DNA from: Candidatus Onstottus arcticum
Lineage (GTDB): Bacteria > Acidobacteriota > Blastocatellia > UBA7656
DNA length: 64,000 nt
Reading direction: 5' to 3'
Assembly: GCA_038040485.1 (NCBI GenBank)
Contig: JBBPIE010000013.1
Location: 84,209-148,208, forward strand
This document shows, piece by piece, positions 453 to 56,268 of this stretch; the first letter of the stretch is position 1; each line of letters begins with the position of its first letter. The translations under genes and the position numbers were made by a program. Below the pieces are notes generated by a model that saw nothing but the letters and a program-made list of their open reading frames with translations, searched no databases and was not told where the DNA came from.

Positions 453-1360
453 TACAAGCGTCTTCTCATATCGAGCAGCAGCGTTGGTTTGTCAGTCTTA
501 ATCGCGTCCGCGCCCAGCAGGCGCATCGCCTCAGCGACGTCCGGCGTGTTCACCGTCCACACCCACACTTCGACGCCGGCCTCGTGGGCCTGCTCGACTA
601 TTTCTCTCGAGAACTTTTTGTAGGAAACCGAGATCGAGTGAGGCTTGAACTTCAGCACCTGCTTCAGCGAGACCTCGTATGGAACCGACGCGCCAAAGTC
701 AGGATTGATCTGAAGCTTCAGACGCGGGCCGAGCGCCTCGCGCAGCTTCTCAGCCAGCTCCATGCCATGCGCTTCCAACACGACGCGATCAAGCTCGGGA
801 AATCTCTTGAGAGTGGCGACGGTCTTCTTGAGCATCTCGTCGCATCGCCCGCAAGGCTTGATCTCGATGTTGAGCAGGCCGGTCTTCTGGTTGGCAAGCA
901 ACTCATCAAGCGTGGGCACGTGACGACCGCCGGTGTCTTCGCCCACCGGGGTGAGCGTTGATTTGGACAGCTCGGAGTATGTGAGGTTCGAAACAAGTCG
1001 CGTGCGCTGAGGCGGAGCCAGGCCCTCGACTCTGCCGAAGTAATCGTCATGATAGACAACGACTACTCCGTCGCGGGTCAATCGGATATCAGTTTCGATT
1101 CCATCGGCGCCGATCCTGGCCGCTCGCTGAAACGCTTCGATAGTGTTCTCGGTAGACTCCTGCGCGCCGCCGCGATGCGCGATGACAAGGGGCCTTCCGG
1201 GCTGTGATTGAGCTTCGCCGACGGGCACCGAAACCTGCGCCGCTGAGATCGACACCAGCGCTACAAGCAGCACGGATGCGGTTACACCAACAAAGCGCGC
1301 CGATATGGTTGGGCAATCGCCGCTTGTCCCAGCCCGCCTAAGGCTCTGCATCTGGAGCAT
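452..1360 (-). CDS. Glycerophosphodiester phosphodiesterase (GDPD family), secreted
   Basis: HRGG...ENT...AF...GADGIETD...DGV-V-HD motifs of the GDPD family; N-terminal signal peptide. Confidence 0.8.
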   Translation of the reverse strand: MLQMQSLRRAGTSGDCPTISARFVGVTASVLLVALVSISAAQVSVPVGEAQSQPGRPLVIAHRGGAQESTENTIEAFQRAARIGADGIETDIRLTRDGVVVVYHDDYFGRVEGLAPPQRTRLVSNLTYSELSKSTLTPVGEDTGGRHVPTLDELLANQKTGLLNIEIKPCGRCDEMLKKTVATLKRFPELDRVVLEAHGMELAEKLREALGPRLKLQINPDFGASVPYEVSLKQVLKFKPHSISVSYKKFSREIVEQAHEAGVEVWVWTVNTPDVAEAMRLLGADAIKTDKPTLLLDMRRRL

Positions 1361-1835
1361 CGAATCGCTTCCTCAGTCTTTCGTAGGTCGCGTTGAGATC
1401 TTCGGGGAGCACGCGCGTCTCGCCGACCACCGAAATGAAATTCGCATCGCCGGTCCAGCGCGGCACGATGTGAAGGTGAAGATGATCGGCGATACCGGCG
1501 CCCGCGCTGCGGCCGAGGTTGATACCCATGTTGAATCCGTCGGGATGATACTCGGTTTGCAGGGCCGTCTGTGCGCGCTTGGCAAGCTCCATCATCTCTG
1601 CCGTCGTTGCCAGGTCAGTGTCGGCAAGCCACGCAATATGTTCGTACGGCACTATCATCAAGTGGCCGCTCGTGTAAGGAAAGAGATTGAGGATGATGAA
1701 GTTCTTCTGGGCTCGATGGACAATCAGGTTTTCGCGATCAGTTCCCAGCTCCTGCACACGGCAGAACACGCAGCCGATCTCGGCCTCAATCGAAGCGACG
1801 TACTTGTAGCGCCAGGGACTCCAGATGTGTTCCAT
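1338..1835 (-). CDS. HIT-family (histidine triad) hydrolase
   Basis: HLHLHIVPR histidine triad near the C-terminus; CxxC pair near the N-terminus; 165 aa. Confidence 0.8.
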   Translation of the reverse strand: MEHIWSPWRYKYVASIEAEIGCVFCRVQELGTDRENLIVHRAQKNFIILNLFPYTSGHLMIVPYEHIAWLADTDLATTAEMMELAKRAQTALQTEYHPDGFNMGINLGRSAGAGIADHLHLHIVPRWTGDANFISVVGETRVLPEDLNATYERLRKRFDAPDAEP

Positions 1836-1837
1836 GT

Positions 1838-2010
1838 TAGTTCGTAGTCCGTAGTCCGTAGTCCGTAGCTCGTAGTTCGTAGTTCGTAGTTCGTATTTCG
1901 TAGTCCGTAGTTCGAGGCTCGTAGTGCGTAGTTCGTAGTTCGTGGTTGCACTCGTTGATGAGCCACTGCGGTCTGGCCACGGACTACGGACTACGGACTA
2001 CTGACTACTC
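1838..2010. repeat. Tandem octamer array (GTAGTYCG, about 13 units) plus a downstream inverted copy (GGACTACGGACTACGGACTAC); large hairpin in the sppA-HIT intergenic region
   Basis: Direct reading of the sequence: array at 1838-1946, inverted arm at 1981-2010. Confidence 0.8.
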
Positions 2011-2011: not shown

Positions 2012-2938
2012 TCACTTCCACAGATACTCGAACTGCAACGCGGCGCCGGGTGCTTGAAGTCTGTTGCCCGAGATAATTTCCCCGACGTCGGTCTTGGTGA
2101 GCAGGTCGAGTATCGAGCCGCGACGCGGCTTTGGCGGCGTGACGACTTGGGGTTCGCCTTTTATGTCGACAAGCTTTGCCGTTGCCTTCAACGCCGCGTC
2201 GTAGTTGCCAAGCTCGTCGATCAGCTTCTCTCGAAGCGCTTCTTCGCCTGTGTACACGCGTCCGTCCGCAAGTTCGGTGACGCGCTCGCGCGAAAGTCCG
2301 GCGTCCTTCCGTCCTTCGGCTACCGTGTTGACGAACTGGGAGAACATCTGGTTGATCAGCGCTTGAAGATACGCGCGCTCTTTGGGTGTGACCCCGCGCG
2401 TGGGGCTTCCGACATCTTTGAACTCACCGCTCTTGATCACCTCGGGCTGCATCTGAGCCCACTTGAGCAGATTGCCGTAGTTCACCCACTCAGCGATCAC
2501 GCCGATCGAGCCGGTAATCGTGCCGGGGTTCGCGATGATGCGGTCCGCCCCGCAGGCTATATAGTAGCCGCCCGATGCCGCCACCGAGCCCATCGAGACG
2601 ACAACTTTTTTCTTCTTCTCCTCGCGCAGCCACTTTACTTGATCGCTTATCTCCTGCGAAGCGGCGACTCCGCCGCCGGGACTGTCGATTCGAAGCAAGA
2701 CGGCCTTGACCCGCGAGTCGTCGCCGTACATCTTTAGCTGTTCGTTGACCGTCCTCGAATCAAAAATCACACCTTCGATATACACGACCGCGATTCGATC
2801 GCCTCCCAGCCCTCCCCAGCCCCCATCGCGAGAGAGCACCAAAGCCGCGAGCAGAATGATGGCAACAAAGAAAACGAAGCCAAAGCCCGCGATGATCAGG
2901 ACCGTGGTGAGATTGAAACGCTTCATAATGCTCTCCAT
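2012..2938 (-). CDS. sppA: Signal peptide peptidase SppA (36K type, ClpP/crotonase fold)
   Basis: N-terminal TM anchor; SMGSVAASGGYYIA and TGSIGV motifs typical of SppA. Confidence 0.85.
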   Translation of the reverse strand: MESIMKRFNLTTVLIIAGFGFVFFVAIILLAALVLSRDGGWGGLGGDRIAVVYIEGVIFDSRTVNEQLKMYGDDSRVKAVLLRIDSPGGGVAASQEISDQVKWLREEKKKKVVVSMGSVAASGGYYIACGADRIIANPGTITGSIGVIAEWVNYGNLLKWAQMQPEVIKSGEFKDVGSPTRGVTPKERAYLQALINQMFSQFVNTVAEGRKDAGLSRERVTELADGRVYTGEEALREKLIDELGNYDAALKATAKLVDIKGEPQVVTPPKPRRGSILDLLTKTDVGEIISGNRLQAPGAALQFEYLWK

Positions 2939-2941: not shown

Positions 2942-2996
2942 CGATCAGCCACCAACGATCAGCTCATTGCTCTTGCTGATCGGTGATGGCTGATCG
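2942..2996. terminator. 22-bp-stem hairpin (CGATCAGCCACCAACGATCAGC / GCTGATCGGTGATGGCTGATCG) downstream of rpsA and upstream of sppA
   Basis: Near-perfect inverted repeat with an 11-nt loop in the 88-bp gap between the rpsA stop and the sppA start (both genes on the minus strand). Confidence 0.45.
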
Positions 2997-3026
2997 CTTC
3001 GAACCGCGATGGGCGCGAGCGGCGAA

Positions 3027-5547: not shown

Positions 5548-6459
5548 ATGAAAGGTTTGGTGCACATGATGAGCCAACTAACACCCCCCTACCCTCTGAT
5601 TTATGATGGACTCTGCGAAGGTCAAGTCATTCCCTTTCTCGGTTCAGGAGCTTCGCTTGGTGGTCGAGAGAAGGACGCGAAGTGGGAGGAAGGCGTAGCA
5701 ACATATCTTCCGACAGCAAGCGAACTAGCGGACTATCTGGCCGACAAGACGGTGTTCCCTAAAGGCGAACCGCGCGACCTCGCGAAAGTGGCCCAATACT
5801 CGAACGCTGTTGGTGGACGCAACTGGCTCGACCAAAAACTGTACAACATCTTTAAGGTCAACTATCAACTCACATCGCTGCACAACTTTCTCGCCGGCCT
5901 GCCCTCACCGCTTTTGATTGTCACCACGAACTATGACGACCTCATTGAGCGTGCTTTTGAAATCAAAAAGCGTGCATATGATCTGGTAATCCATACGACT
6001 CACCCGGACTACAGTGGCAATCTCCTGTGGTGGCCGCACGGCAAACGAAAGCCGCGCGAGGCGGTACCGAATGAATTGGACATTGATCTCAGCGCGGTCG
6101 CAGTGATCTATAAGATGCACGGTGCAGTCGATCGCCGCGATCCAGCGCGCAGTCAGTATGTCATCACCGAAGATGATTACATCGACTTTCTCACTCGCAT
6201 GACTTCAGACAGCGCTATTCCCGCAATATTTTCTCAGGCATTCCAACAACGGCCCTTTTTGTTCCTTGGCTACGGTCTGCGGGACTGGAACCTGCGAGTA
6301 GTCTTGAACAAAATCGAGAAGGATATGCAGAGACCGGGAGATATCACCTCTTGGGCAATTCAGCATGATCCCTCCCCGTTGGAGCGGTTATTTTGGCAAA
6401 AGCGAGATGTGCAGGTCTATGACATGACGATTGAGGAGTTTGTGGCGAAACTCCTCTAG
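5548..6459 (+). CDS. SIR2-like (SIR2_2 family) protein, putative NAD+-consuming effector
   Basis: FLGSGAS, TTNYDDLIE, MHGAV and LFLGYGLRD motifs matching the SIR2_2 (PF13289-type) signature; GC visibly lower than the flanking genes. Confidence 0.8.
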   Translation: MKGLVHMMSQLTPPYPLIYDGLCEGQVIPFLGSGASLGGREKDAKWEEGVATYLPTASELADYLADKTVFPKGEPRDLAKVAQYSNAVGGRNWLDQKLYNIFKVNYQLTSLHNFLAGLPSPLLIVTTNYDDLIERAFEIKKRAYDLVIHTTHPDYSGNLLWWPHGKRKPREAVPNELDIDLSAVAVIYKMHGAVDRRDPARSQYVITEDDYIDFLTRMTSDSAIPAIFSQAFQQRPFLFLGYGLRDWNLRVVLNKIEKDMQRPGDITSWAIQHDPSPLERLFWQKRDVQVYDMTIEEFVAKLL

Positions 6460-6489
6460 CATTACGAACCAAAATACCGGGATGCAACG

Positions 6490-9117
6490 ATGACGATGTC
6501 GGAAGCTCAGCGCGGCTCACCTTACCTGGGTCTCATACCATACGACGAACAAGACGCGCCCTTCTTCTTTGGGCGCGAGAAAGAGACGCGGATCATCACG
6601 GCTAACTTGTTCGCCTCGCGGCTGACGCTGTTGTATGGCGCGAGCGGAGTCGGCAAGTCGTCGGTCCTGCGGGCTGGCGTCGTCCACCAATTGCGCCCAC
6701 GCAAAGACGTCCTTGCAGTGGTGTTCAGCGACTGGCAGAACGACCCGCTCACGAAGCTCAAGACCGCGGTTGCTAAGGCATCGTCGGACGCCACCGACAA
6801 GAGTGATCCGCTGCCGGATTCCTCATCGCTGGCCGAATACCTGGCAGGGTACAGCGCAAGACTCAATGGCCGCTTGATGATCATCCTCGATCAGTTCGAG
6901 GAGTATTTCCTCTATCACGCGCAACAGGACAGTCAAGGCACGTTCGACGTCGAGTTTCCGCGCGCGGTCAATCGCCCGGGCTTGCGTGTCAATTTTCTCA
7001 TCTCCATACGCCAGGATGCCTTGGCGGAATTGGATCGTCGTTTCAAAGGGCGCATCACCAATCTCTTCAACAACCGCCTGGAAGTCAAACACCTCAGCCG
7101 CGAAGCAGCAAAAGCAGCAATTGAGAAACCCATAGATGAATACAATAGCCGTTACGTGACAGAAGGCGAGGAGTTCAGCATCGAACCGGATTTGGTCAAC
7201 GAGGTTCTGATCGAGCTTCAGGAGGACGGCGCCTCTCAAGCACCTCACAAGCAAGTTGACTTCAGGAGCGGGAAACGCGAAGCGCTCATTGTAACCCCCT
7301 ACCTGCAACTGCTAATGGCCCGCATATGGGAGAAGGAAATAGAAAACAACTCGCGCGTCCTGCGGTTGAAGACGCTAAAGGGCCTCGAAGGTTTGCGGAA
7401 CATAGTTCAGGTTTACTTGAACAATGCAATGGATGCGCTATCTCCCAGGGAGCGAGAGATCGCGGCGGATATGTTCGACTACCTGGTCACTCCATCGGGG
7501 ACAAAGATCGCATACATGGCATCCGATCTGGCCATAAAGACCAAGAGCGGGCCGGAGCAGCTTAAGCCCGTGATGGATAAACTCTCCACCGATTTTCGTA
7601 TTTTGCGCTCAGTAGACCCGCCGCTCGACCGACCAAACGAGTTACGTTATGAGGTGTACCACGACGTGCTTGCGGTTGCGGTTTTAATTTGGCAAGAGGA
7701 ATACCGGCGGAACCAGGTGGATGCCGAAGCCAAGAAGAAGGCGAAAGAACAACAGCGCCAAGCCGAGGAGAAAGCAAGGGCTGAAGAGCAAGCAAAGGCT
7801 AACGCAATCCTGCGGCGATGGCTTTGGGCGCTGGCGTTCATGACTCTGTTGGCGATGAGCGCTTCGGTGATCGCGTATAAGCAATCCAGGAATGCACGTG
7901 CTAGTGAGCAGAAGGCGCTGGATGCTCAGAAGAACGCCGAGGAAAAACGGGAGTCGGCACTTCAGGTGCTCAGATTTTATGACGATGTCATACCTGTTTC
8001 CGATGGCTTGCTTTATGGAGGCAATCAGCGGGTGACCTTGGATCGGCTGGAAAGATCGCTGCAAGAGCATAAAGATAAGGGCAACCTCAGCGGAGAAGGA
8101 ATAACGCTCGCCAAGATCGGTGACTTTTACCATTTGCTCAACAAGGATACCGCGGCGCAGGAGTACTATGAACGCGCCTTGCCGATCTTAGAGAATGTTC
8201 TTGGAAAGGATCATCTTTACGTAGCCACCATCCTGGATAAATTGGCGACAGTTTACCTCAATCAGGGCAACTCGCTGAACTACTCCAAAGCTGAGCCGCT
8301 TGAAGAGAGGGCATTAATGATTCTGAAGCAAGCCCTGGGAGCGGAGAATGTCGACGTAGCCACTGCGCGCAACAATCTGGGGCTCATCTACCTCAACTGG
8401 GGCAAGTACGCCGAGGCCGAGCCGCTTTTCAACGAGGCAATCGATATTGACCTGAGGATTCATGGGAAAAACGATGTTGAGGTAGCCAATGGCCGAAACA
8501 ACCTGGCCCTGCTCTACCTCAAGCAGGGCAGGTATGCAGAGGCCCAGTCTCAGTTTGAGCAGGCACTCGACATCTGGAAGAAGAATCTAGGCGAGGAGAA
8601 TACGACTGTAGCGGATGGTCTCACCAACCTGGCTGAGGTCTACCGCAAACAGGGGCAGTACATTGAAGCGGAGCCGCGCGCAAGAAGAGCATTTGAGATT
8701 TGGGAGAAGCAAGCCTCGGCGCCCGACGATCCCGATTTGGCTCAAAGCTTAAACATCCTGGGAATGATCTATAGCGATGAAGGTAGATTCTCCGAAGCCG
8801 GGCCGCGTCTCAAACGAGCCTTAGCGATCCGTGAGAAAGCTCTTGGGCTCGAACATGAAAAGCTGGCAATCAGCCTCAACGCGCTGGCAGTGCTTTCTTA
8901 CAGGCAAGGCAAGAACGCCGAAGCAGAGCAGTTTTTCAAGAGAGCCCTCAAGATTCGCGAGAGCGCGCTGGGGCCAGATCATCCCGATGTGGCGGAGACC
9001 CTTCGAGACTATGCGACGCTGCTGCGCTCGAGCGGTAGGGAAGCTGAAGCTGCAGTCATGGACGCCCGTGCAGAAGCCATCCGGACCCGGCACGCAGAAG
9101 AGAATCGAAGAAACTGA
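6490..9117 (+). CDS. nSTAND-type P-loop NTPase with an internal TM helix, a charged coiled-coil and C-terminal TPR repeats
   Basis: N-terminal SPYLGLIPYDEQDAPFFFGREKE motif followed by Walker A GASGVGKSSVLRAG; K/E/A-rich segment, hydrophobic helix WLWALAFMTLLAMSASVIAY, then at least six TPR_10/12-like repeats; 30-bp gap after the SIR2 gene. Confidence 0.75.
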   Translation: MTMSEAQRGSPYLGLIPYDEQDAPFFFGREKETRIITANLFASRLTLLYGASGVGKSSVLRAGVVHQLRPRKDVLAVVFSDWQNDPLTKLKTAVAKASSDATDKSDPLPDSSSLAEYLAGYSARLNGRLMIILDQFEEYFLYHAQQDSQGTFDVEFPRAVNRPGLRVNFLISIRQDALAELDRRFKGRITNLFNNRLEVKHLSREAAKAAIEKPIDEYNSRYVTEGEEFSIEPDLVNEVLIELQEDGASQAPHKQVDFRSGKREALIVTPYLQLLMARIWEKEIENNSRVLRLKTLKGLEGLRNIVQVYLNNAMDALSPREREIAADMFDYLVTPSGTKIAYMASDLAIKTKSGPEQLKPVMDKLSTDFRILRSVDPPLDRPNELRYEVYHDVLAVAVLIWQEEYRRNQVDAEAKKKAKEQQRQAEEKARAEEQAKANAILRRWLWALAFMTLLAMSASVIAYKQSRNARASEQKALDAQKNAEEKRESALQVLRFYDDVIPVSDGLLYGGNQRVTLDRLERSLQEHKDKGNLSGEGITLAKIGDFYHLLNKDTAAQEYYERALPILENVLGKDHLYVATILDKLATVYLNQGNSLNYSKAEPLEERALMILKQALGAENVDVATARNNLGLIYLNWGKYAEAEPLFNEAIDIDLRIHGKNDVEVANGRNNLALLYLKQGRYAEAQSQFEQALDIWKKNLGEENTTVADGLTNLAEVYRKQGQYIEAEPRARRAFEIWEKQASAPDDPDLAQSLNILGMIYSDEGRFSEAGPRLKRALAIREKALGLEHEKLAISLNALAVLSYRQGKNAEAEQFFKRALKIRESALGPDHPDVAETLRDYATLLRSSGREAEAAVMDARAEAIRTRHAEENRRN

Positions 9118-10149: not shown

Positions 10150-13061
10150 CTCCGTTTCCCCTTTCGCTCCGCGGCCCCTCGCAAATTGCTGCCTGATCCG
10201 CCAGTTCCGGTAAGAGTTCCTCCAGGGTCAGGTGCTCCGATACTGCCGGCTGGATTCATGCGCTTCAGCGGTGGCAAAACAAGCGTCGTGTCAGATGTTT
10301 GGCGAACCGCCTGATTGTTGGCTTGACCGCAAGGGAACTCACAGCACGTAGCAGTGTTGTCCTGTCCCTTGCCACGAACTGTCACCTTAACAAACCTGGT
10401 CTTGGGGTGCTCATTCGCGTTCGAGAACCTCTGGATAACCTTTAAGCTCTGGCCCGCTCGTTTTGTCGCAGCCGTCGGAGGCGGTGGATTGACGGCTTGC
10501 GTGATCACGCCCGCAAGGGATGCAGTGTCATTGTCTACCGGAACCGTTATGCACTTTCCATTGTCAACGAATGCGAATGCGAAAACCGCTTCCACAATAT
10601 CCAACGGATTAGAGTCAAAGACGTAGAAGGTGACTTCGAATATGTCACCCGAACGAGTCAGTGTCGGAGCCGGATGATCTTGCGTCCCATCTGAATTGAT
10701 CAGAATTACCTGCGGCACTATGTGGGCGAGAATGTTGAGCGAAACTTCCCCGGCATCACTGCTGAATTTGAGCCTGCCCTGAATGAATTCCGGCAAAAGA
10801 AGTTTTGGCGAAGAGGTAAACCCGGGGACGAATCCGGGAATGGCAGGCTTGAATGTTAAGTCAAACGTCTGCGTATCGCCTGGCGCAATTTCCATTGGAA
10901 ACTCTTTTTGCGGACCTTGAGGCACAACGGAGAAAACCCCGCTCTTGTCTTTTTTCTCCTTGTTGCCCACCATTCGGAAGAGCTTGAAGTCCAAGTTGGC
11001 AAGCAAGACACAGCCGGTATTCGTGATCGTAAATGACAACGATCGACTTTCGCCCACATTGATGTCTCTAAAGTTAAGGGAGCTCGTGCTCAACACCGCT
11101 TTTGCGGAACCAGAGCAGATGGTTAGTTCCGATGTGTTTCCGTTCGAGTCTGTGAGGGTGGCTGTGTAGAAGCCGCTCGGAGAAACCGGCAGCCCGCTTG
11201 CGCTGAAACTGTTGCCGACAAGAGGCGCGCTGCCAAGGAAGATCACATTATCCAGAACAACTTTGTCCGTCGTACGTCTGAGATTGGCAGCGAATATCTC
11301 GACCGTCCCGCCACCAAGAGGAGGGCTGTTGATTTGACCTGCTATCGTCACCGTTGCAATAGCGGCGTTTCCATTGGAAGCATTCTGTACAACAACGGTG
11401 TCCGGGAAATTAAGGAGCGTGTTAGGCCCTTCATCCGCGTCTCCAACATCGTTGAGAGTTGGTCCGTCGCAAACGCTCGCAGGCTCGTTCGCCGGGAAAG
11501 GCTCGGAGCTGCCCAGGTCGATCGGAGTTTCGCTACCGGAAATATCGTTCATCGAGATCGTGTTTCCAACGTTGTGAGTTACGGCGTTGAATACACCGGG
11601 CCGTGGATCGAGCACACAGATACCTGCCTGGATGTTGTTCTCGAGTTTGTTGAGCTCGATCCGATTGAATCCCGTGTTATCGGAGGGGCAGACCGGCTGG
11701 ATGACAATTCCTGCGTGAAGGAACCCTGTGATTCTTAGGCCGCGCACGACGTCGCGGTTGGAGCGGATCATTATTCCATCGTCGAGTTGGAACTGCCCAT
11801 CAATCGACACCCTCCGATCACAAACGATCGCCTCGTCTTGCGATGTCTCCGCGCAAGTCACCTTAACCGGGATTGAAGGCGCGCAACCTGCTGCGCACCC
11901 GCAGATGGTGATGTCGGGCGCGGTGAGCGGAGGCAACGGTTGGCTCGGACGGATCGTCATCCCGGAGCTGAACGTTATTGTTGTGCGTCCGCCGTTGGCG
12001 TTTGCCGTCTCGATCGCCTGGCGCAGTGAACGTGGGCTTCCCTCCACGAACGGGGTACCTGGAGCGGTATCAGCAGTGGTAGCCACAGTGAGGCTGCGCA
12101 ACGCGATGTTGCCCCTGAGCGCCCTCCGAACGAAGTCCGCAAATTGTTTCACCTGACATCCGCACTCCTCCTCAAAGGTCGCCGTGTCGACTACACTGTG
12201 TTTCGTTTTGGGTTTGTTGCACTCGGTTGGGACGATGACCTCTACTACGCCGGGTAGATCGGCGGGCGGAGAGGGGAAGGCTAAACGTTCGACGAGTAGT
12301 TTGGCATCTTCGAGCTCTTTGGTCTCGGTCGGAACGCCAATTAAGATCACGTCCAGCTCGGCCTCACCTGCCCTTACGCGCGCTAACTGGGATGCCAGGA
12401 CGCCGTTAACACGGTCGTCGTCATTGTTGCTAGGCTCGCCGTCGGTTGACAGGATGAACACACGGCGAGCGCCTGAACCTGCAACCTGGTCGGCTTGCGA
12501 GATCGCTTTGCCGAAGTCAGTCTCGCCGGCTGGGCACGGGGGGATGTTGCTGTCGAGATCCGGACAAACCACCAGCGGTTTGATCCGGTCGGCTGCGGAC
12601 ATGGCATCCGCGTCTGAGCCTATCCGCGGCGTGAGGGGCAGGATGATCGAAGCCTCGCCATCGAACAGTACCGCGCCCACCGAAACCGAGCCGTCGCGAG
12701 GTATCACTGAAGGGTCGAGCAGCGCGCGCCGTACTCCCTCGATTTCAACGTTGTAGGTTTGCCCTCGCCCATCGCTGCTGGTGCCCTCGTGCGGACCCTC
12801 GATCTTGTTTTGCATGCTTCCCGAGCGGTCGATGATGAAGACAAGATTGGTAAGCGCTTGCGTGTCCGGACAGTCTGGAGGTTGCTCCGCTGCATGATAC
12901 CCACCGAGCCGCGGGCCCATCATCGTCACCGCGAGCCCCATCGAGATTGACAATCCAACGCAAGCGATCAATCGAAAACCTCGCAACTTGTTTCGCGTGC
13001 GACCGCGGCTTGTTTGCGCCTGTGGCAAGGCGCCGGCGATCGGGGAATCGAGCATACTCAT
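10146..13061 (-). CDS. Large secreted vWA-domain protein with parallel beta-helix-like repeats and C-terminal beta-sandwich domains
   Basis: MIDAS motif LVFIIDRSGSMQ; N-terminal TM/signal; GIVI, NRIELN..AGICV and NTISMNDISG repeats suggest a beta-helix. Start placed at ATG 13061 (MSMLDS), which has a GAGGAGG Shine-Dalgarno 8 nt upstream; the ORF track extends to 13244. Confidence 0.7.
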   Translation of the reverse strand: MSMLDSPIAGALPQAQTSRGRTRNKLRGFRLIACVGLSISMGLAVTMMGPRLGGYHAAEQPPDCPDTQALTNLVFIIDRSGSMQNKIEGPHEGTSSDGRGQTYNVEIEGVRRALLDPSVIPRDGSVSVGAVLFDGEASIILPLTPRIGSDADAMSAADRIKPLVVCPDLDSNIPPCPAGETDFGKAISQADQVAGSGARRVFILSTDGEPSNNDDDRVNGVLASQLARVRAGEAELDVILIGVPTETKELEDAKLLVERLAFPSPPADLPGVVEVIVPTECNKPKTKHSVVDTATFEEECGCQVKQFADFVRRALRGNIALRSLTVATTADTAPGTPFVEGSPRSLRQAIETANANGGRTTITFSSGMTIRPSQPLPPLTAPDITICGCAAGCAPSIPVKVTCAETSQDEAIVCDRRVSIDGQFQLDDGIMIRSNRDVVRGLRITGFLHAGIVIQPVCPSDNTGFNRIELNKLENNIQAGICVLDPRPGVFNAVTHNVGNTISMNDISGSETPIDLGSSEPFPANEPASVCDGPTLNDVGDADEGPNTLLNFPDTVVVQNASNGNAAIATVTIAGQINSPPLGGGTVEIFAANLRRTTDKVVLDNVIFLGSAPLVGNSFSASGLPVSPSGFYTATLTDSNGNTSELTICSGSAKAVLSTSSLNFRDINVGESRSLSFTITNTGCVLLANLDFKLFRMVGNKEKKDKSGVFSVVPQGPQKEFPMEIAPGDTQTFDLTFKPAIPGFVPGFTSSPKLLLPEFIQGRLKFSSDAGEVSLNILAHIVPQVILINSDGTQDHPAPTLTRSGDIFEVTFYVFDSNPLDIVEAVFAFAFVDNGKCITVPVDNDTASLAGVITQAVNPPPPTAATKRAGQSLKVIQRFSNANEHPKTRFVKVTVRGKGQDNTATCCEFPCGQANNQAVRQTSDTTLVLPPLKRMNPAGSIGAPDPGGTLTGTGGSGSNLRGAAERKGKRR

Positions 13062-20732: not shown

Positions 20733-20966
20733 TGCTGGCTTAGGTCTTCACCAATTTGCAAACGAACTGAGATTGAGTATAGGACCGGCTTACTGGCTGC
20801 GCAATGATTGTCTGGGGAGAGGAGGCTTGCGGTTGCCGCGCCGAATGCTCCAAGGTGATTGCGGCCTCTCAGGCAACCGGATATTCTTCTGACGCTCGCG
20901 AGCCCTTGGATTGTCGTTCGCGTTCCGAGAGAGGAAGCTCATTCCGGCTTGCATTCGATTCGAGCG

Positions 20967-23900
20967 ATGCAAAGACTGAATCTCAAGACAACTCACAAAC
21001 CCGTTAGGGATTACTACGAGGCGCTTCAGCAGTTCTCCAGGATTGGCGTCTCGCACGAGGGCGCAGTCCGAAGCGCCTTTCAATCTCTGCTCGAATCATG
21101 CGGCTCTCAGTTTGGTTGGAAGCTGGTTCCCGAATGGCCGATAAAGAAATCGCGCCTCCGGGTCGATGGCGCTCTCGTTGACGCCTTCAATCTGACACAC
21201 GGTTTCTGGGAGGCCAAAGATCAACACGATGATCTTAAGGTCGAAGTTAAGCGCAAGTTCGCTGCGGGCTATCCCCGAAACAACATCCTCTTTCAAGCGC
21301 CCGAGCGAGCGATCCTCTATCAGGACAGCCGGCACGTACTCGACGAAGACATCACGAAACCCGAAGCTCTCGTAGAAACTCTCAAACGCTTTGTCGAGTA
21401 CACGCCTCCGGCATTCGAGGAGTGGGAAGAGGCCGTCGCGCAGTTTCAAGTCAAAGTGCCGGAGCTTGCCGCGGCGTTGGTTAAGCTCATCGATGAAGAG
21501 AGGAAAACAAATAGCCGGTTCATCGAGGCATTTACCGGGTTCTTGGAGCTGTGCCGTCAGTCGATAAACCCCAATCTTTCGGAACAGGCTGTTGAAGAAA
21601 TGCTCATCCAGCACCTGTTAACCGAGCGCATCTTCCGCACCGTTTTCGACAATGCCGACTTCACTCGCCGCAACGTCATCGCAGCCGAGATTGAAAAAGT
21701 CATAGACGCGCTAACCTCTCATTCCTTCAGCCGCGAGGCGTTCTTAAAGAGCCTCGATCACTTCTATAAAGCGATTGAAACGACTGCCGCGACGATCGAC
21801 GACTTCTCGCATAAGCAGCACTTCTTGAATGCCGTCTACGAGAAGTTCTTTCAGGGATTCTCGGTCAAAGTCGCCGACACGCACGGCATCGTCTACACGC
21901 CTCAGCCAATCGTGAACTTCATGGTTCGTAGCGTCGAGGACATCCTTGAAAAGGAATTCGGCAAGACACTCAGCAGCCGGGACGTCCATATTCTCGATCC
22001 GTTTGTGGGCACAGGAAATTTCATCGTGAGGGTGATTCAGGAAATCAAAAAGACCGCGCTGCCTCACAAGTACAAACACGAGCTTCATTGCAACGAAGTG
22101 ATGTTGTTGCCTTACTACATAGCCTCAATGAACATCGAGCACGAGTATTTCGAGAGGACCGGAACCTACGAACCGTTCGAAGGAATTTGCCTCGTTGATA
22201 CCTTCGAGTTGGCTGAGGGTAGTCAGACACGGCTTTCATTCATGACCGCGGAAAACACGGCTCGCGTGGAACGTCAGAAACGCAGCCCGATATTTGTCAT
22301 TATCGGGAATCCTCCTTATAACACAGCTCAGTTGAATGAAAACGACAACAACAAGAATCGCAAGTACAAGGTCATGGATAAGCGTGTCTCGGAAACCTAC
22401 GGGAAAGATTCAAAGGCTACGCTTGTGAGTAAACTGAGCGATCCTTATGTAAAGGCAATCCGTTGGGCATCAGATCGAATAGGTGAGGAAGGGATAGTGG
22501 CATTTGTGACGAATAGTGGTTTCTTAGATCAGATCGCCTTTGATGGGATACGAAAGCACCTCGAGCAAGACTTTGATGAGATCTACATTTTTGATTTGGG
22601 CGGTAACGTCAGGAAGAACACGAAACTGTCAGGGACCACTCATAATGTCTTTGGTATACAAGTAGGTGTCAGCATCAATCTGCTCGTCAGAAAAAGGACC
22701 GGCCGACCCTCTAACGGCGCGACAATCTACTATGCGCGAGTAGACGAATTCTGGCGCAGAGAAAACAAGTATCGGTATCTCGAGGAGTCAGGGAACAGAA
22801 CTAATATTGATTGGCAGGTCGTTCACCCTGAGGGGAATAATACGTGGCTTACAGAGGGACTTCACACTGACTTCAACTCGTTCCTACCGATAGCAACAAA
22901 GGCGACAAAACAAGCAAAGCGGTTGAATCCTGAGGTCGTCTTCAAGACTTACAGCCTTGGTGTGGCAACAAATCGCGACGAATGGGTCTATGATTTTAGG
23001 CAAACTGATCTAGAGCAGAAGATCCGGACCCTTGTCCAGAATTATACCCTTGAATCTGCGCGATACGCTCAGGAGAGCGAGATTCACAACATTGATGAAT
23101 TCGTGAATAACAACCCCAGATTTCTAAAATGGACTGACAGGCTGAAGGAAGCTCTACAGCAAAGAAAAGTACTTAGATTTGATCCAACACAAATCCGTCA
23201 TTCGCTATATCGCCCCTTCGTCAAAAAGTTTCTGTATTTCGATCATCTTCTCAATCAAAGAAGATACCGGCAGCATATTGTCTTCCCTAACCCCGAGTCT
23301 GAAACCGAAAACCAAGTGATCTGTGTTGGCGGCTATGGTCGAAAGGTGTTTTCTGTTCTGTTGAGTAGTTGCATTCCAGATTTGAACTTTTACGCTGATC
23401 CACAACAATCTTTCCCCGTGTACACCTATGACGAGGACGGCACCAACCGCAAAGAGAACATCACTGACTGGGTGCTTGAGAAGTTCCGCTCGCACTACGA
23501 TGAATCATCAATCACCAAGTGGGACATCTTTCACTACGTCTATGCCCTTCTCCATCATGCCGTCTATCGTGAGCGTTACGCCGCAAACCTCAAGCGGGAG
23601 CTTCCCCGTATTCCGTTCGCTCCCGGCTTCCGAGCCTTCGCAGACGCGGGCGCGCGGTTGGCAGACATCCACGTGAACTACGAAGAGCAGCCGGAATATC
23701 CACTCGACAAGATCGAAGTACCCGGCGCGCAACTCGACTGGCGAGTCGAGAGGATGCGGCTGACGAAAGACAAGACTGAAATCATCTACAACGACTTCTT
23801 GCGGCTGTCAGGGATTCCGCTGGAGTGTTTCGAGTATCGCCTGGGCAATCGCTCGGCGTTAGAGTGGGTGATCGACCAGTATCAAGTCTCAACAGACAAG

Positions 23901-24044
23901 CGAAGCGGCATAACCAACGATCCAAACCGCGCCGACGATCCCGAGTACATCGTCAGGCTGATCGGCCAGGTGATCACTGTAAGCTTGGAAACGGTAAGGA
24001 TCGTTCGCGGGCTGCCCGTCCTCGGGATCGCGCCAGACGCCTAG
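20967..24044 (+). CDS. MmeI-family Type IIL/IIG restriction-modification enzyme (N-terminal PD-ExK nuclease-like region plus N6-adenine methyltransferase plus C-terminal target-recognition region)
   Basis: N-terminal D..(x)n..FWEAKD (D-EAK) arrangement similar to the MmeI nuclease motif; motif I LDPFVGTGNF and motif IV GNPPYN; GC clearly lower than the surroundings. The ORF track offers an alternative TTG start at 20859. Confidence 0.6.
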   Translation: MQRLNLKTTHKPVRDYYEALQQFSRIGVSHEGAVRSAFQSLLESCGSQFGWKLVPEWPIKKSRLRVDGALVDAFNLTHGFWEAKDQHDDLKVEVKRKFAAGYPRNNILFQAPERAILYQDSRHVLDEDITKPEALVETLKRFVEYTPPAFEEWEEAVAQFQVKVPELAAALVKLIDEERKTNSRFIEAFTGFLELCRQSINPNLSEQAVEEMLIQHLLTERIFRTVFDNADFTRRNVIAAEIEKVIDALTSHSFSREAFLKSLDHFYKAIETTAATIDDFSHKQHFLNAVYEKFFQGFSVKVADTHGIVYTPQPIVNFMVRSVEDILEKEFGKTLSSRDVHILDPFVGTGNFIVRVIQEIKKTALPHKYKHELHCNEVMLLPYYIASMNIEHEYFERTGTYEPFEGICLVDTFELAEGSQTRLSFMTAENTARVERQKRSPIFVIIGNPPYNTAQLNENDNNKNRKYKVMDKRVSETYGKDSKATLVSKLSDPYVKAIRWASDRIGEEGIVAFVTNSGFLDQIAFDGIRKHLEQDFDEIYIFDLGGNVRKNTKLSGTTHNVFGIQVGVSINLLVRKRTGRPSNGATIYYARVDEFWRRENKYRYLEESGNRTNIDWQVVHPEGNNTWLTEGLHTDFNSFLPIATKATKQAKRLNPEVVFKTYSLGVATNRDEWVYDFRQTDLEQKIRTLVQNYTLESARYAQESEIHNIDEFVNNNPRFLKWTDRLKEALQQRKVLRFDPTQIRHSLYRPFVKKFLYFDHLLNQRRYRQHIVFPNPESETENQVICVGGYGRKVFSVLLSSCIPDLNFYADPQQSFPVYTYDEDGTNRKENITDWVLEKFRSHYDESSITKWDIFHYVYALLHHAVYRERYAANLKRELPRIPFAPGFRAFADAGARLADIHVNYEEQPEYPLDKIEVPGAQLDWRVERMRLTKDKTEIIYNDFLRLSGIPLECFEYRLGNRSALEWVIDQYQVSTDKRSGITNDPNRADDPEYIVRLIGQVITVSLETVRIVRGLPVLGIAPDA

Positions 24045-24133
24045 AAACAGTTGGCTACCCAAGTCGCTCGTCGATTCACGAATCGTCGTTGGTGAGAATG
24101 ATGCCGCCACCGCCCGCTTGAAAAGGCTTCGTC

Positions 24134-24568
24134 CTAGGATGCTGGCGCGGGCAACAATTCCCTCTCAATCTCCGCGATCAAGAATGGCAGATTGGGCAAG
24201 GTAAAGCTCAAGCCCGGAGCAGGTAGACGATGGTGCCTGATGTCTGGAGGGATGTGCTTGTGATGCGGGTGCGTGCTGCCGAGCGTGACGTCGCCGGGAT
24301 GTGGTTGCGAATCGTACCAGTAGAGCTTCTCCGCGCCGAGCCAGACCTCGTAACCGTAGCTAACGATCCGTAAGACTCCGGCAGCAAGCATCAATCGTTC
24401 ACTCACGACTAACCGCACGCCGCCGGGAAAGATGACTTCGCCACGGACCAGCGCCGTTCCCGCGCCGCGCCGCACGACCAGCAGCGTCGAGTATACAATT
24501 GCCGGGAACTGCTGTGGCAATCCGTAGATGAATTCTTCGTACTCACTTAGCGAGTTCAAGTGGTTCAC
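24134..24568 (-). CDS. Hypothetical protein (His-rich HPHHKH segment), second gene of a two-gene operon
   Basis: ORF only; 26-bp overlap with the upstream small ORF. Confidence 0.3.
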   Translation of the reverse strand: MNHLNSLSEYEEFIYGLPQQFPAIVYSTLLVVRRGAGTALVRGEVIFPGGVRLVVSERLMLAAGVLRIVSYGYEVWLGAEKLYWYDSQPHPGDVTLGSTHPHHKHIPPDIRHHRLPAPGLSFTLPNLPFLIAEIERELLPAPAS

Positions 24569-30141: not shown

Positions 30142-30492
30142 TCACTTGAGCGGAAGGTGCTGGGTTCGATCGCGCCATTCCGCCGGTTCGCTAGCCCCCG
30201 CAATCAGTTCGAGGTCGGAAATACAACCTCCAACGCTAACATTTAGTTGATGACCATAGATCACACCAGCGAAAGTCACGCCTGGCTGCTGACGTCTCTT
30301 AGCCTCGCGCAAGAGGTCGTCATCTTGTGTAAAGAGAACGCGTTCTAGCTCAGTTGCGCGATCAAGAAGCTGTCGATCATCCATCTGCGCCGCACCGTCC
30401 TCCTGAGCCGTCAGCACGTCTACGCCTTTCAGGTGCAACCCATCAGTTACGGCCCGGCGGACGTGTACGTCCATGTAGAGCCTAATGCTCAT
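30142..30492 (-). CDS. DUF5615-like (PIN-like) putative toxin
   Basis: Small protein paired and overlapping with a DUF433-like gene; general similarity to DUF5615. Confidence 0.5.
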   Translation of the reverse strand: MSIRLYMDVHVRRAVTDGLHLKGVDVLTAQEDGAAQMDDRQLLDRATELERVLFTQDDDLLREAKRRQQPGVTFAGVIYGHQLNVSVGGCISDLELIAGASEPAEWRDRTQHLPLK

Positions 30493-30800
30493 AGCAGGAG
30501 TTTCAGCGTGCGCAGGCGTTTCCTTAGGTCTGACTCCTCATCGTTCGCGGCCATCTGGTTGACCTCAGCCCACCGGCGCTGAATCTCCGCATCAAGCTCA
30601 GTCTGATGCTCGTGATAGTAGGCTAGCGCTGCGTGAATCTGAGCCATGGAGAGATGCGGGTACTGAAAATGAATTTCCTCAGGGCTTGAGCCGTGAGCCA
30701 GTTTATCAAGCACGACCTCGATCACCTTCACCCTTGTGCCAATGATCCAAGCAACTCCCCGCTCGTCCAACTCAACATAAGTGGCGGTCACAGTCGTCAT
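30489..30800 (-). CDS. DUF433-family putative antitoxin
   Basis: About 100 aa with the pattern typical of DUF433; 4-bp overlap with its partner. Confidence 0.55.
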   Translation of the reverse strand: MTTVTATYVELDERGVAWIIGTRVKVIEVVLDKLAHGSSPEEIHFQYPHLSMAQIHAALAYYHEHQTELDAEIQRRWAEVNQMAANDEESDLRKRLRTLKLLL

Positions 30801-31654: not shown

Positions 31655-31658
31655 GGAT

Positions 31659-31790
31659 GTCTTTGTCCCTTGTCCCTTGTCCTTTGTCTCTTGTCCTTTG
31701 TCTCTTGTCCTTTGCCTCCCGTTATTTGTCCTTTCTGTCCTTTTCGTCCTTTTAGCCAGTGACCAAGGACTAAGGACAAGGGACTAATGA
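31659..31790. repeat. Tandem heptamer array (TTGTCCY/TTGTCTC, about 10 units) with downstream inverted copy GGACTAAGGACAAGGGAC, between convergent larB and yqeY
   Basis: Direct reading; inverted arms at 31665-31682 and 31767-31784. Confidence 0.75.
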
Positions 31791-31797
31791 CAAATGA

Positions 31798-32277
31798 CTA
31801 TTGACCAGATAGCTTCGCCTTCACCAGATCGCTGAGCGCTTTTCCATCGACTGTTTTTCCTTCAAGCTTCGAGCGTACGACCTTCATCATTGCGCCCATG
31901 TCTTTCATGGAAGCCGCGCCGGTCTCCGCTATGGCCTGTACAACCGCAGCGGTCATTTCTTCTTCGCTTGCCGAAGCAGGAAGGTAAGTCTGAATGATCC
32001 GCGCTTCGTTTTCTTCCTTGACGGCAAGGTCTTCCCGGTTGGCTGCTCTGTACTGTTCGGCCGCGTCACGCCGCTGCTTCAAGATCGTGTTCAGCACGCG
32101 CGCCGCTTCGGTGTCATCGACTCCCGCGGGCAGCTCGGACTGGCGCATCGTAAGCGCAGTCTTCACCATTCGAAGCGCGCTGAGCCGCTCTGCTTCTTTC
32201 GCTTTCATCGCCTCGATGATGTCGCGGCTGATTTGTTCAACGATCGGCATGTGCCGGCGCCTCGCTTTGGGATTCAA
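31798..32277 (-). CDS. yqeY: GatB/YqeY-domain protein
   Basis: Collinear match to the GatB/YqeY family. Confidence 0.75.
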   Translation of the reverse strand: MNPKARRRHMPIVEQISRDIIEAMKAKEAERLSALRMVKTALTMRQSELPAGVDDTEAARVLNTILKQRRDAAEQYRAANREDLAVKEENEARIIQTYLPASASEEEMTAAVVQAIAETGAASMKDMGAMMKVVRSKLEGKTVDGKALSDLVKAKLSGQ

Positions 32278-32810
32278 GCTTCGTGACCGAGTTGTCTGCT
32301 CTTTTCGACTGGAGCTCCGGCCTCCAACCAGTCACCGCACTCTTCGGACTCATTGATCGGATTTGCCCAAACCAGAACTCCCAATTCTCTTACCTGACTG
32401 GCTGCTGCCGCAAACGCTCTTCGCGCCGTTTCGTCCAATGAAACAACGATTCCGTCGGCATCTAACGCCGCCTCGATTAGGTGAAAGTCCTTCTCTGCAG
32501 CCTGTTGATCTTTCTTCTTGGTAGTAGTCTTGAGGATCCTCGCCCTCAGACTTGCGTTTTGGGCGGGGTCAATTCTCTTTAGCTTTTTCCGCGCGACCAT
32601 CGAAACTCGCCAAGTGCGTGCGAAGTTCGACTGGTGCCTGTCCCATTCTTCGGTGAGTTCGGCAGACATCACGATTCGGTGGCATATTGTAAGAACTGCC
32701 ATTAGGAAGTCTCGGCAATCCTTCGACGCCGGGAACGTCGCATCAGGACCGCCAGAGGACCTTGCCACAGACGCATCAATTACAAGCCTCCGTGACGTCG
32801 GTTTTGCCAT
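32274..32810 (-). CDS. Hypothetical protein, possibly PIN-like nuclease; partner of the upstream AAA ATPase
   Basis: N-terminal RLVIDASVA resembles the PIN beta1-Asp; operon position (4-bp overlap downstream, 3-bp gap upstream). Confidence 0.3.
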   Translation of the reverse strand: MAKPTSRRLVIDASVARSSGGPDATFPASKDCRDFLMAVLTICHRIVMSAELTEEWDRHQSNFARTWRVSMVARKKLKRIDPAQNASLRARILKTTTKKKDQQAAEKDFHLIEAALDADGIVVSLDETARRAFAAAASQVRELGVLVWANPINESEECGDWLEAGAPVEKSRQLGHEA

Positions 32811-32813
32811 TCA

Positions 32814-39057: not shown

Positions 39058-39133
39058 TTTCTGGTTTCTAGTTTCTGGTTTCTGGTTCCGATGTTGCACC
39101 AACCAGCAACCAGAAACCAGAAACTAGAAACCG
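39046..39133. repeat. Hairpin with a roughly 26-bp stem built from tandem GTTTCTRG heptamers, overlapping the stop codon of the upstream gene
   Basis: gtttctagtttctggtttctagtttctggtttctggtt ... aaccagaaaccagaaactagaaaccgg; same unit family as the element at 49520-49621. Confidence 0.8.
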
Positions 39134-47120: not shown

Positions 47121-47122
47121 CG

Positions 47123-49519: not shown

Positions 49520-49621
49520 GTTTCTAGTTTGTGGTTTCTGGTTTCTGGTTCCACAGAACAGGTCAAGCGGAGCCGAACGAAAAACCACAAACCAGAAACT
49601 AGAAACCAGAAACTAGAAACC
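49520..49621. repeat. Hairpin with a roughly 30-bp stem built from tandem GTTTCTRG heptamers, between the first and second genes of the ACIII-like operon
   Basis: gtttctagtttgtggtttctggtttctggttcc ... accacaaaccagaaactagaaaccagaaactagaaacc; it ends 5 nt before the ATG at 49626. Confidence 0.8.
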
Positions 49622-49625
49622 GCAT

Positions 49626-51812: not shown

Positions 51813-51853
51813 CGTTCCCTGCTCGAGTCGAGCCGGGTGATCAGCTAAGGAAA

Positions 51854-52558: not shown

Positions 52559-52730
52559 GCAGAGTGAATACCGGTTCGGGAAAGCGAATTTGTTTACGGC
52601 CAGTTCAAAAGCAGTGATTGATTGCATAGCCAGCGCAAGGCTCGTATGATCGCCTCCATAGCGGCCCAGTCCGATTTATTTGCAGAGCCTGGACTGCGCA
52701 AGATCGAACTGAGCGTCTCTTCAACGCCTG

Positions 52731-56260: not shown

Positions 56261-56268
56261 GCGGGAAA

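Follow-up and report, generated by a model that had tools for sequence, protein, structure and literature searches.

What are the tandem short repeats that fill the entire gap between sppA and the neighbouring HIT-family gene in Candidatus Onstottus arcticum, and do they act on the transcripts that contain them? The question arises from a stretch of 64,000 nucleotides of this soil acidobacterium of the class Blastocatellia (hereafter the window; assembly GCA_038040485.1, contig JBBPIE010000013.1, positions 84,209 to 148,208), in which an initial annotation, made from the sequence alone, had pointed to a recurrent class of hairpins whose stems are composed of tandem 7- to 10-mers. Our overall reading, which we hold to be probable, is that these are heptanucleotide-repeat palindromes which slippage has produced and which, once transcribed, form stem-loops between cistrons or at 3′ ends without being intrinsic terminators.

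The hairpin at the sppA–HIT junction

The junction belongs to the gene order rpsA, sppA, HIT, with all three genes on the minus strand. Repeats in the window were called by Tandem Repeats Finder (TRF), and the junction contains the following features:

1338–1835, minus strand: HIT-family gene (HIT domain, E 7.5e-16; Pfam, tblastn)
1838–1947, minus strand: hairpin 1, long arm with 15.7 heptamers, plus-strand units TAGTTCG/TAGTCCG (TRF, inverted repeat, fold)
1948–1975, minus strand: non-repetitive spacer of hairpin 1 (sequence, fold)
1976–2008, minus strand: short arm of hairpin 1, 4.3 heptamers, AGTAGTC/CGTAGTC in the mRNA sense (TRF, inverted repeat)
2012–2938, minus strand: sppA (Peptidase_S49, E 1.9e-51; Pfam)
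5006–3027, minus strand: rpsA, ribosomal protein S1 with six S1 domains, upstream of sppA

Both arrays have a period of 7: the one at 1838–1947 comprises 15.7 copies (83% matches, consensus TAGTTCG), and the one at 1979–2008 comprises 4.3 copies (95% matches, consensus ACGGACT). Both lie where the initial annotation had placed an array and an inverted counterpart (1838–2010), but the units described there as octamers are heptamers, the copies estimated at about 13 number about 16, and the gap separating the arms is approximately 28–31 nt instead of 35. Across 32 nt, the arms at 1838–1869 and 1976–2007 are 91% complementary. Read in the sense of the sppA–HIT transcript, the sppA stop (2014–2012) is followed after 3 nt by the short arm, which is therefore the 5′ arm, then by the spacer of about 28 nt and the long array, which finishes 2 nt short of the HIT ATG (1835). 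The minimum-energy fold of hairpin 1 reaches −71.8 kcal/mol (z = −6.5; here and below, fold z-scores were computed against dinucleotide shuffles). In this fold, the short arm pairs only with the 3–4 units closest to the HIT start (1844–1866), and what remains in the middle of the array is left as one large internal loop. Regarding the flanking genes, the HIT N-terminus (MEHIWSPWRYKY) is conserved among relatives from residue 1 on (tblastn), and the true start of sppA is likely the ATG at about 2926, which has GGAGAG ahead of it.

Hairpins of the same design in the window

The other sites considered in the window, including one absent from the list of the initial annotation, were as follows:

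2942–2998, minus strand: hairpin between rpsA and sppA, arms GCGATCAGCCATCACCGATCAGC and GCTGATCGTTGGTGGCTGATCGT, incipient 7/14-nt period; not listed in the initial annotation
31658–31805, no strand assigned: hairpin, arms 31658–31718 and 31758–31805, TTGTCCY heptamers with a 14-nt super-period (period 7/14)
39050–39132, plus strand: hairpin, arms 39050–39087 and 39101–39132, GTTTCTR heptamers, period 7
49519–49621, plus strand: hairpin, arms 49519–49550 and 49582–49621, period 7, the same GTTTCTR unit as at 39050–39132
58063–58171, no strand assigned: hairpin, arms 58063–58100 and 58134–58171, CACAGATRAA decamers, period 10
59479–59558, minus strand: weaker hairpin, arms 59479–59503 and 59534–59558, 8-9-nt units (CTTGGCG), weakly periodic
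42035–42078, plus strand: doubtful case, a loopless 44-nt palindrome of ATCTCNG heptamers inside the SpoIID/SPOR open reading frame (ORF) 40133–42886, fold z −3.2

The hairpin at 31658–31805 separates two convergent genes, an AIR-carboxylase-like gene (plus strand) and YqeY (minus strand), and its right arm overlaps the YqeY stop by 8 nt. That at 39050–39132 is situated between a beta-lactamase-family gene and a TonB-like gene, with the upstream TAG stop lying within its first unit and 25 nt of its arms being 100% complementary; it is the sole window site with UUUU after the stem (3′ flank GGUUUUGG, position 39132 being followed by GGTTTTGG). The hairpin at 49519–49621 separates two genes of Alternative Complex III, actA (cytochrome c7) and actB (molybdopterin subunit); its first base is the last base of the actA stop and its end is 4 nt ahead of the actB ATG. 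The decamer hairpin at 58063–58171 is located between the convergent actD (plus strand) and an acyl-CoA dehydrogenase gene (minus strand), its left arm overlapping the final 28 nt of actD, while the weaker hairpin at 59479–59558 begins 51 nt 3′ of the stop of the gene at 60662–59607.

Stems at the window sites are 25–60 bp long, with loops of 13–106 nt. Fold z-scores beyond that of site 1 were −9.0, −10.5, −9.5/−8.8, −4.0/−3.4, and −4.4, the first three being the best. A detector that paired TRF arrays of period 5–12 with a reverse-complementary array no more than 150 nt away returned 4 pairs of inverted heptamer arrays for the window, compared with none for 20 copies of it that had been shuffled locally; likewise, 18 arrays were found in the window and 0–3 per local shuffle. 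The further sites of the initial annotation were confirmed as real by TRF, inverted repeats, and fold z-scores, the one at 59479–59558 being weak, so that the window holds at least five more such hairpins. Rfam gave no match at the gathering score anywhere in the window.

Enrichment in the lineage

We compared three sets of sequence: a clade set of 305 kb (the window and its close relatives), an outgroup set of 105 kb (more distant Acidobacteria with SppA at most 60% identical), and a set of other phyla, 1.28 Mb in size, that the same query with ActA had retrieved. In the clade set, 64 of the 90 short tandem arrays had a period of 7 (55 arrays) or 14 (9 arrays), and 41 of the 55 heptamer arrays had an inverted partner within 250 nt. 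The outgroup contained 21 heptamer arrays, 14 of them paired, and heptamers made up 28 of the 126 arrays from other phyla, where only 4 were paired. Paired heptamer arrays are strongly enriched in this part of the Acidobacteriota, roughly 40-fold compared with other phyla, and elements occur in the clade at a density of roughly one per 8–15 kb. A stricter detector applied to the ActA loci (1.35 Mb) retrieved 5 pairs, 3 of which came from the two closest relatives. The absence of pairs from shuffled sequence, together with the counts in the clade and in other phyla, shows that the proposed recurrent class is real and enriched in the lineage.

Unit families are shared between loci. The GTTTCTR unit is present at the two window sites, in the relatives' locus L087, and in one arm in L081 (L numbers denote loci of relatives throughout), and families of the units GGTTCCG and CGTGATG are present at non-orthologous loci. 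A second family of hairpins with periodic arms, built from CTTTGCG-type units of 8–9 nt, is recurrent in the clade and was seen once in a metagenome-assembled genome (MAG) of the Calditrichaceae; the window hairpin at 59479–59558 resembles it. Its members are:

L097, 11479–11555, 15396–15494, and 19438–19532: CTTTGCG-type hairpins
L102, 153–256 and 14890–14980: CTTTGCG-type hairpins
window, 59479–59558: CTTTGCG-type hairpin
L058, 4946–5078: CTTTGCG-type hairpin

The same junctions in relatives

The closest relatives of ActA in a collection of species-representative genomes were Blastocatellia/Acidobacteriota MAGs with 83%, 69%, 57%, and 59% identity, and a metagenome scan with the SppA query supplied 40 sppA loci. 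Exact-protein look-ups of HIT and ActA returned no record, which the choice of start codon or the lack of this genome in the collection may explain. Between actA and actB, a heptamer hairpin is located at exactly the same place in L001 (83%) and L002 (69%), with the related but different unit GGTTCCG; in L003 and L004 this junction is empty, with 8–12 nt from stop to ATG.

HIT comes after sppA in 26 relatives (SppA 79–94% identical), and at their sppA–HIT junction approximately 22 of them carry a hairpin with heptamer arms that extends from stop to start; at least 7 unit types were distinguished:

AGTAGTC: window, L082, L085, L087, L092–L095, L098, L099
AGTGGTC: L081, L103
AGTTGTC: L084
GGTGGTC: L090
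CGTGATG: L086, L096, L097, L101, L113
GTCATTG: L102
ATTTGAT: L104

The exceptions are L088, where the junction is empty (TGAaaggaacATG), L089, which bears a non-periodic palindromic element, and L100, which has a short simple hairpin. Element lengths at this junction range from about 60 to 240 bp (57–242 bp across elements), and among AGTAGTC-type alleles the stem base is conserved and the interior is variable. An assembly artefact was rejected because over 25 assemblies, independent of one another, have elements at this same junction. In L105, L107–L111, L114, and L115 (SppA at most 60% identical), a gene encoding an HU/IHF-like protein (MTKAELVEEVAR...) follows sppA instead of HIT, an arrangement that recalls the rpsA–ihfB neighbourhood of E. 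coli.

Some hairpin is always present at the neighbouring rpsA–sppA junction. In the subclade of the window it is incipiently periodic, and one arm of it is longer by a 7-nt unit in L084. A plain GC stem that ends in a T-rich tail is typical of most other members of the clade, and the outgroup Acidobacteria have full heptamer hairpins. Specifically, L086–L102 share a conserved, non-periodic, GC-rich hairpin about 20–80 nt upstream of sppA (e.g., L087, 3167–3217), consisting of GACGCGACCC...GGGTCGCGTC followed by GTTGTTTTT, which looks like an ordinary terminator or attenuator after rpsA.

Slippage and element replacement

Comparison of copy number between close relatives, a check that had been named in advance, revealed whole-unit differences in L089/L090 and in L084. 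The genomes L089 and L090 are 97% identical over 20 kb, and a hairpin that they share (position 19548) differs by an indel of 21 nt (3 × 7) restricted to its left arm, which is direct evidence for slippage by whole units, independent in each arm. Arm lengths and copy numbers are unequal between the two arms everywhere. Together with the 7-nt duplication in L084, these data support the earlier suggestion that hairpin arms expand by slipped-strand events.

Slippage accounts for changes in copy number, but whole-element replacement must also occur, because unit types ignore the SppA tree and families recur at unrelated loci. For example, no pair within their group is closer than L094 (AGTAGTC) and L096 (CGTGATG), at 94.1%, and CGTGATG alleles with the same stem base span clusters that are only about 80% identical. 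Among genomes that are 91–94% identical, BLAST alignments end with the sppA stop and pick up again from the HIT start wherever unit types differ (L094/L096, L098/L101, L097/L102, and L097/L085), and they are uninterrupted where the unit type is the same (L087/L099 and L098/L094). In a comparison aimed at recombination between genomes with the same junction allele, identity of the junction flanks (100–300 nt) was 0.96 vs. 0.92–0.93 for one same-allele pair and 0.89–0.94 for another. Even L089 and L090 have completely different elements at sppA–HIT, and the stop codon differs as well. The L089 element (10911–11011; cf. L090, 10915–11015) is a non-periodic palindrome with 31-nt arms, GTTCAGAGTACCGACTTTAGTCGGGC...GCCCGACTAAAGTCGGTACTCTGAAC. 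Arms of similar appearance were noticed at L004 (18375), L002 (3147), and L097 (17537), and palindromes of the L089 type may represent a separate REP-like (repetitive extragenic palindromic) family; a search for related members with a degenerate pattern, which was poorly chosen, gave no match. All sppA–HIT units fit NN(A/C)GT(A/G)(A/G) and are similar to the end of sppA (AAGTGA or AAGTAG), a likeness that suggests the arrays may have been seeded from the stop-codon region.

Replacement of this kind is also what non-autonomous mobile elements would produce, that is, elements resembling REPs or MITEs (miniature transposable elements with inverted repeats), with heptamers as terminal inverted repeats and a transposase encoded elsewhere. 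Such elements would explain why the same unit families are found at unrelated loci, why the two GTTTCTR copies of the window share termini, and why the whole junction is swapped between 97% and 91–94% identical genomes with breakpoints exactly at the stop and start codons; the discordance of allele classes with the SppA tree and the different palindrome of L089 are equally in their favour. We nevertheless consider them unlikely. The GTTTCTR copies have no target-site duplication (one is flanked by GGATC and CGGTT, the other by GATAG and CGCAT), on which grounds a MITE was rejected, loops and lengths vary among copies, the dozens of units have no common terminus, and changes proceed in 7-nt steps within a single arm. 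Additionally, neither a RAYT (REP-associated tyrosine transposase; Y1 transposase) nor any other transposase was found among the ORFs of the 64-kb window. Slippage plus element replacement at the DNA level, generating heptanucleotide palindromes similar to the short tandemly repeated repetitive (STRR) sequences of cyanobacteria, is the account of identity and origin in which we place good, though not full, confidence.

Location, strand test, and arm polarity

Nearly all arrays lie outside ORFs. Stem bases are located −28 to +51 nt from the upstream stop (within 8 nt at heptamer sites), and at junctions of co-directional genes they are found −8 to +7 nt from the stop and 0–16 nt from the ATG. 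The detected hairpins comprise 29 in co-directional, 6 in convergent, and no true divergent spacers, against an intergenic background of 222/78/67; one apparently divergent case was a gene-call error at the L101 sppA–HIT junction. The statement that all sites are 3′ of stop codons thus holds. Abutment on both codons is to be expected if the elements grew from a spacer of 7–12 nt.

A structure selected in mRNA should show transition mismatches as G-U pairs on the sense strand. In 32 hairpins between co-directional genes, we counted 76 G-U pairs on the sense strand vs. 115 on the antisense strand, and the sense fold was the more stable one in only 14 of the 32 (Wilcoxon p = 0.26). With no sense-strand G-U bias, there is therefore no RNA-specific signature, which fits an origin and homogenisation at the DNA level. 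The elements are nonetheless restricted to spacers that are transcribed.

These data bear directly on the function proposed by the initial annotation, namely that of lineage-specific terminators or attenuators, in which a long RNA stem would stop or pause the polymerase without a U-tract. The position of every element 3′ of a stop, with none in a divergent promoter spacer, is what such a function predicts, and the stems are very stable. The convergent sites at 31658 and 58063 are compatible with the end of a transcription unit, and the hairpin at 39050–39132 is followed by GGUUUUGG. However, no T-run follows the stem at 6 of the 7 window sites, and this, together with the 25–60-bp stems and 13–106-nt loops, ruled out an intrinsic terminator; a scan for terminator and promoter consensus sequences found nothing at site 1. 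Neither are the elements confined to the ends of transcription units, since sites 1, 2942, and 49519 are inside rpsA–sppA–HIT and between actA and actB, where co-expression of the neighbouring genes is expected; the products of actA and actB belong to a single complex. The lineage also has ordinary terminator-like hairpins, because relatives carry a separate one with a GC stem and T-rich tail at the rpsA–sppA junction. The hairpins separate actA from actB and flank sppA on both sides, and they are unlikely to be efficient terminators of any kind. Considering also the G-U pairs without strand preference, we regard a terminator or attenuator role as quite unlikely, so this part of the initial annotation is not retained; its remark that the elements are neither classic GC-stem/U-tract terminators nor CRISPR was correct according to both the reading of the sequences and the consensus scan.

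The tight placement between stop and start codons could alternatively reflect translational coupling, in which the stem would hold the stop beside the start and hide the start, so that translation of the downstream gene would be left to ribosomes fresh from termination upstream, by hairpin-bridged reinitiation or a 'shunt'. Besides the placement itself, the clade-wide persistence of the junction hairpin and the constant start-proximal position of the A+C-rich arm agree with this explanation. Furthermore, hairpin-bearing sppA–HIT alleles have no Shine–Dalgarno-like motif before the ATG, and the empty allele has AAGGA. This last argument is weak given the low frequency of the motif anyway: it precedes 15 of 40 first-candidate starts (13% background), and only about half of the window genes have one. 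The original spacer of about 7–12 nt leaves any insert abutting both codons, such elements are also found between convergent genes, for which coupling would make no sense, and the sense strand shows no G-U bias. Coupling is in our judgement very unlikely.

The order of the arms shows a consistent polarity. Of 30 periodic hairpins, 26 have a G+T-rich 5′ arm (mean 0.66) together with an A+C-rich 3′ arm (raw count, binomial p about 6e-5); counting each of the seven sppA–HIT allele classes a single time gives 20 of 24. The hairpins behind this count are window 1838–2008, 31658–31805, 39050–39132, and 49519–49621, and those of L001, L002, and L081–L109. Non-periodic inverted repeats in the same DNA showed no polarity (30 vs. 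26). The polarity is independent of the direction of transcription, because a palindrome reads alike on both strands, and a symmetric neutral process should yield both arm orders equally.

Comparison with known repeat classes

An excess of 7-nt repeats has been known since about 1990 from cyanobacterial STRRs; the heptanucleotide STRRs of heterocystous cyanobacteria were reportedly described by Mazel et al. in that year. Like STRRs, the elements studied here are intergenic, consist of tandem 7-nt units in 4–16 copies, vary by whole units, and belong to several unit families per genome, with the same unit at several dispersed loci. STRRs differ in being mainly direct arrays, with few inverted pairs in Nostoc, whereas 75% of the arrays are paired here. 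Nostoc has the dispersed heptamers ttgtcag and actgact (PMC2408588), to which CAGTTGT, AGTAGTC, and TCATTGG (L102) of this clade are alike. No description of STRR-like repeats in Acidobacteria was found in the searchable literature. Beyond cyanobacteria, heptamers are over-represented among long simple sequence repeats in many bacteria, an excess shown to be widespread in 2007, with polymerase slippage on a 7-nt footprint as its suggested origin (Mrazek et al. 2007, as cited in PMC4679880 and PMC4692102).

A close structural parallel to the paired arrays comes from Xanthomonas, where 70–75 inverted GGGAATC array pairs per genome have been reported (Rehm et al. 2015, PMC4692102), with the type (single or inverted pair) kept across related species, and variation in sequence and length (PMC4692102). 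In both systems, two arrays of one 7-nt unit lie on opposite strands within one intergenic region (41 of 55 arrays here) and are capable of forming a stem-loop, and the Xanthomonas repeats are mostly transcribed. Xanthomonas pairs are described as always 'convergent', which appears to equal the G-rich-arm-first polarity seen here. The differences are that Xanthomonas has a single G-tract unit, studied for quadruplexes, whereas this acidobacteriotal clade has dozens of unrelated units, replaces the unit family at orthologous sites, and has elements that span operon junctions exactly from stop to start. Most units here have no GGG (AGTAGTC, GTTTCTG, TTGTCCC, and CGTGATG, among others), which does not agree with a G-quadruplex unit; the exceptions are GGGGGTT (L098) and TAGGGGC (L105).

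TAACTGA repeats, found in marine Beggiatoaceae, cyanobacteria, and Bacteroidetes, are likewise intergenic, proximal to start codons, and patchy in their taxonomic distribution, being direct repeats just upstream of start codons in Beggiatoaceae (MacGregor 2015, PMC4679880). Unlike the present elements, they have one unit and form short sets of 2–6 copies, 169 sets being direct and one indirect. A cold-shock protein has been reported on heptamer direct repeats, one per heptamer (reviewed in PMC4679880), which raises the possibility that our arrays are binding sites for a protein reading 7 nt, either a cold-shock or S1-domain protein on RNA or a DNA-binding protein; the 7-nt period is, after all, their sole conserved feature. 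However, the units are extremely diverse within each genome and turn over at a given site, and pairing would hide single-stranded sites in the three quarters of arrays that have a complementary partner. We consider this explanation highly improbable.

When considering interspersed palindromes, the REP elements and their composite bacterial interspersed mosaic elements (BIMEs), enterobacterial repetitive intergenic consensus (ERIC) sequences, and Correia elements of Neisseria fold in mRNA and affect its stability or undergo cleavage by RNase III. Like our elements, they are palindromes with imperfections and lie in extragenic DNA that is transcribed, either 3′ of genes or within operons; they differ from them in having a conserved sequence without internal periodicity. 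REPs in particular are palindromes of 20–40 bp with a terminal GTAG or CGTC tag and are associated with RAYT transposases (for an overview, see PMC3733652); neither was found here, the transposase having been sought among the ORFs of the window. Since our elements are 57–242 bp long, internally periodic, and of many unrelated sequences, with GTAG only as part of AGTAGTC, assignment to REP was rejected. The description 'REP-like' in the initial annotation accordingly stands for the location (transcribed, extragenic, 3′ of genes) and fails for the sequence, as no conserved REP sequence or tag was found.

Several other classes were discarded. In mycobacteria, mycobacterial interspersed repetitive units (MIRUs) are direct repeats of 40–100 bp with small ORFs; they share with our elements an intra-operon location abutting or overlapping the flanking stop and start codons, but they are not hairpins and have no 7-nt period, and they were rejected on reading the sequences. 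Coding of small ORFs was rejected on account of stop codons in all frames of the 5′ arms, and CRISPR, whose direct repeats of 23–50 nt alternate with unique spacers of like size, on account of the units being 7–10 nt long and directly abutting. For integron attC sites, the core motifs RYYYAAC and GTTRRRY are missing (GTTTCTR differs from GTTRRRY), and the genes on either side are housekeeping genes whose synteny extends to about 25 relatives. Four features set the present case apart from known heptamer repeats: many units per genome, pairing of three quarters of the arrays, turnover of families at fixed junctions, and strict placement from stop to start.

Proposed mechanism and significance

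Arrays grow and shrink by replication slippage in 7- or 14-nt steps, each arm independently, as documented by the indels described above, and whole elements are exchanged for other unit families at the same site. The pattern of exchange is apparent from the alleles; it could come about through recombination, through ectopic conversion by other members of a unit family, or through a template switch from one arm to the other. Once transcribed, an element would fold into a stem-loop of 25–60 bp, the base of which would bring the upstream stop and the downstream start next to each other, and at tight operon junctions the paired form is perhaps the only one tolerated. By analogy with REP/BIME, ERIC, and Correia elements, the likely effect would be that of a barrier to 3′ exonucleases and/or a target for RNase III, and cutting by RNase III would shift the relative stability of the flanking cistrons. 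If there is an effect at the RNA level, we tentatively favour mRNA processing or stability over termination, while regarding it as a doubtful possibility.

Several points weigh against this reading. Any effect at the RNA level is derived by analogy, the lack of a sense-strand G-U bias argues against strong selection at that level, and the elements may be functionless. Pure neutrality, in turn, is hard to square with the persistence of the junction hairpin to about 79% SppA identity and with the G+T-rich-arm-first polarity. Alleles shared by clusters about 80% identical go beyond slippage alone, and gene calls in the loci came from a crude ORF picker.

A more far-reaching and very improbable alternative is that the elements are selected, lineage-wide operon wiring made of interchangeable 7-nt modules, in which the downstream cistron would be translated only by ribosomes that have terminated upstream and then cross the base of the stem. 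If this were true, the junctions would be a bacterial counterpart of ribosome shunting, with an A+C-rich, start-codon-free arm beside the ATG, and the G+T-first polarity and persistent occupancy despite sequence turnover would be its signatures.

Whichever account applies, the clade constitutes a dense natural data set in which one junction can be traced through dozens of metagenomic relatives. The architecture kept despite replacement of units, the 7-nt slippage steps, and the fixed arm order provide handles on mechanism, and make polymerase slippage, template switching, allele exchange, and RNA processing testable. There is also a risk for annotation in Acidobacteria, as alignments break at gene boundaries and the elements can be mistaken for terminators or regulatory RNAs.

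Other genes in the window

The Alternative Complex III genes that flank two of the hairpins form an unusual row (48968–58091). The actB gene is split into a molybdopterin part (49626–51812) and a separate 4Fe-4S part (51854–52558), and two large genes encoding CarboxypepD_reg-domain proteins (52731–56260) are situated between actB and actC/actD.

The remaining observations concern other groups of genes. At 5548–9117, a SIR2_2-domain gene is followed by a gene for an nSTAND1 NTPase with TPR repeats, a pair with the appearance of an anti-phage defence system. Positions 20859–24568 encode a restriction-modification enzyme of Type ISP (N6_Mtase, ISP coupler, Type_ISP_C), which lies within the only low-GC stretch of the window (0.49 at 22001–24000), and adjoins a TumE-family toxin gene. 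At 42972–48685, an nSTAND1 NTPase with WD40 repeats (1382 aa) adjoins a TIR-domain protein (520 aa); the only tRNA match in the window, a 96-nt 'tRNA-Glu' called by ARAGORN at 44136–44231, lies on the opposite strand inside the WD40 ORF and is probably spurious. Finally, the regions 30142–30800 and 32274–34145 hold a toxin–antitoxin-like DUF433/DUF5615 (Mut7-C-like) pair and an ATPase pair composed of an AAA_21 (AbiEii-like) protein and a small partner with no Pfam match.

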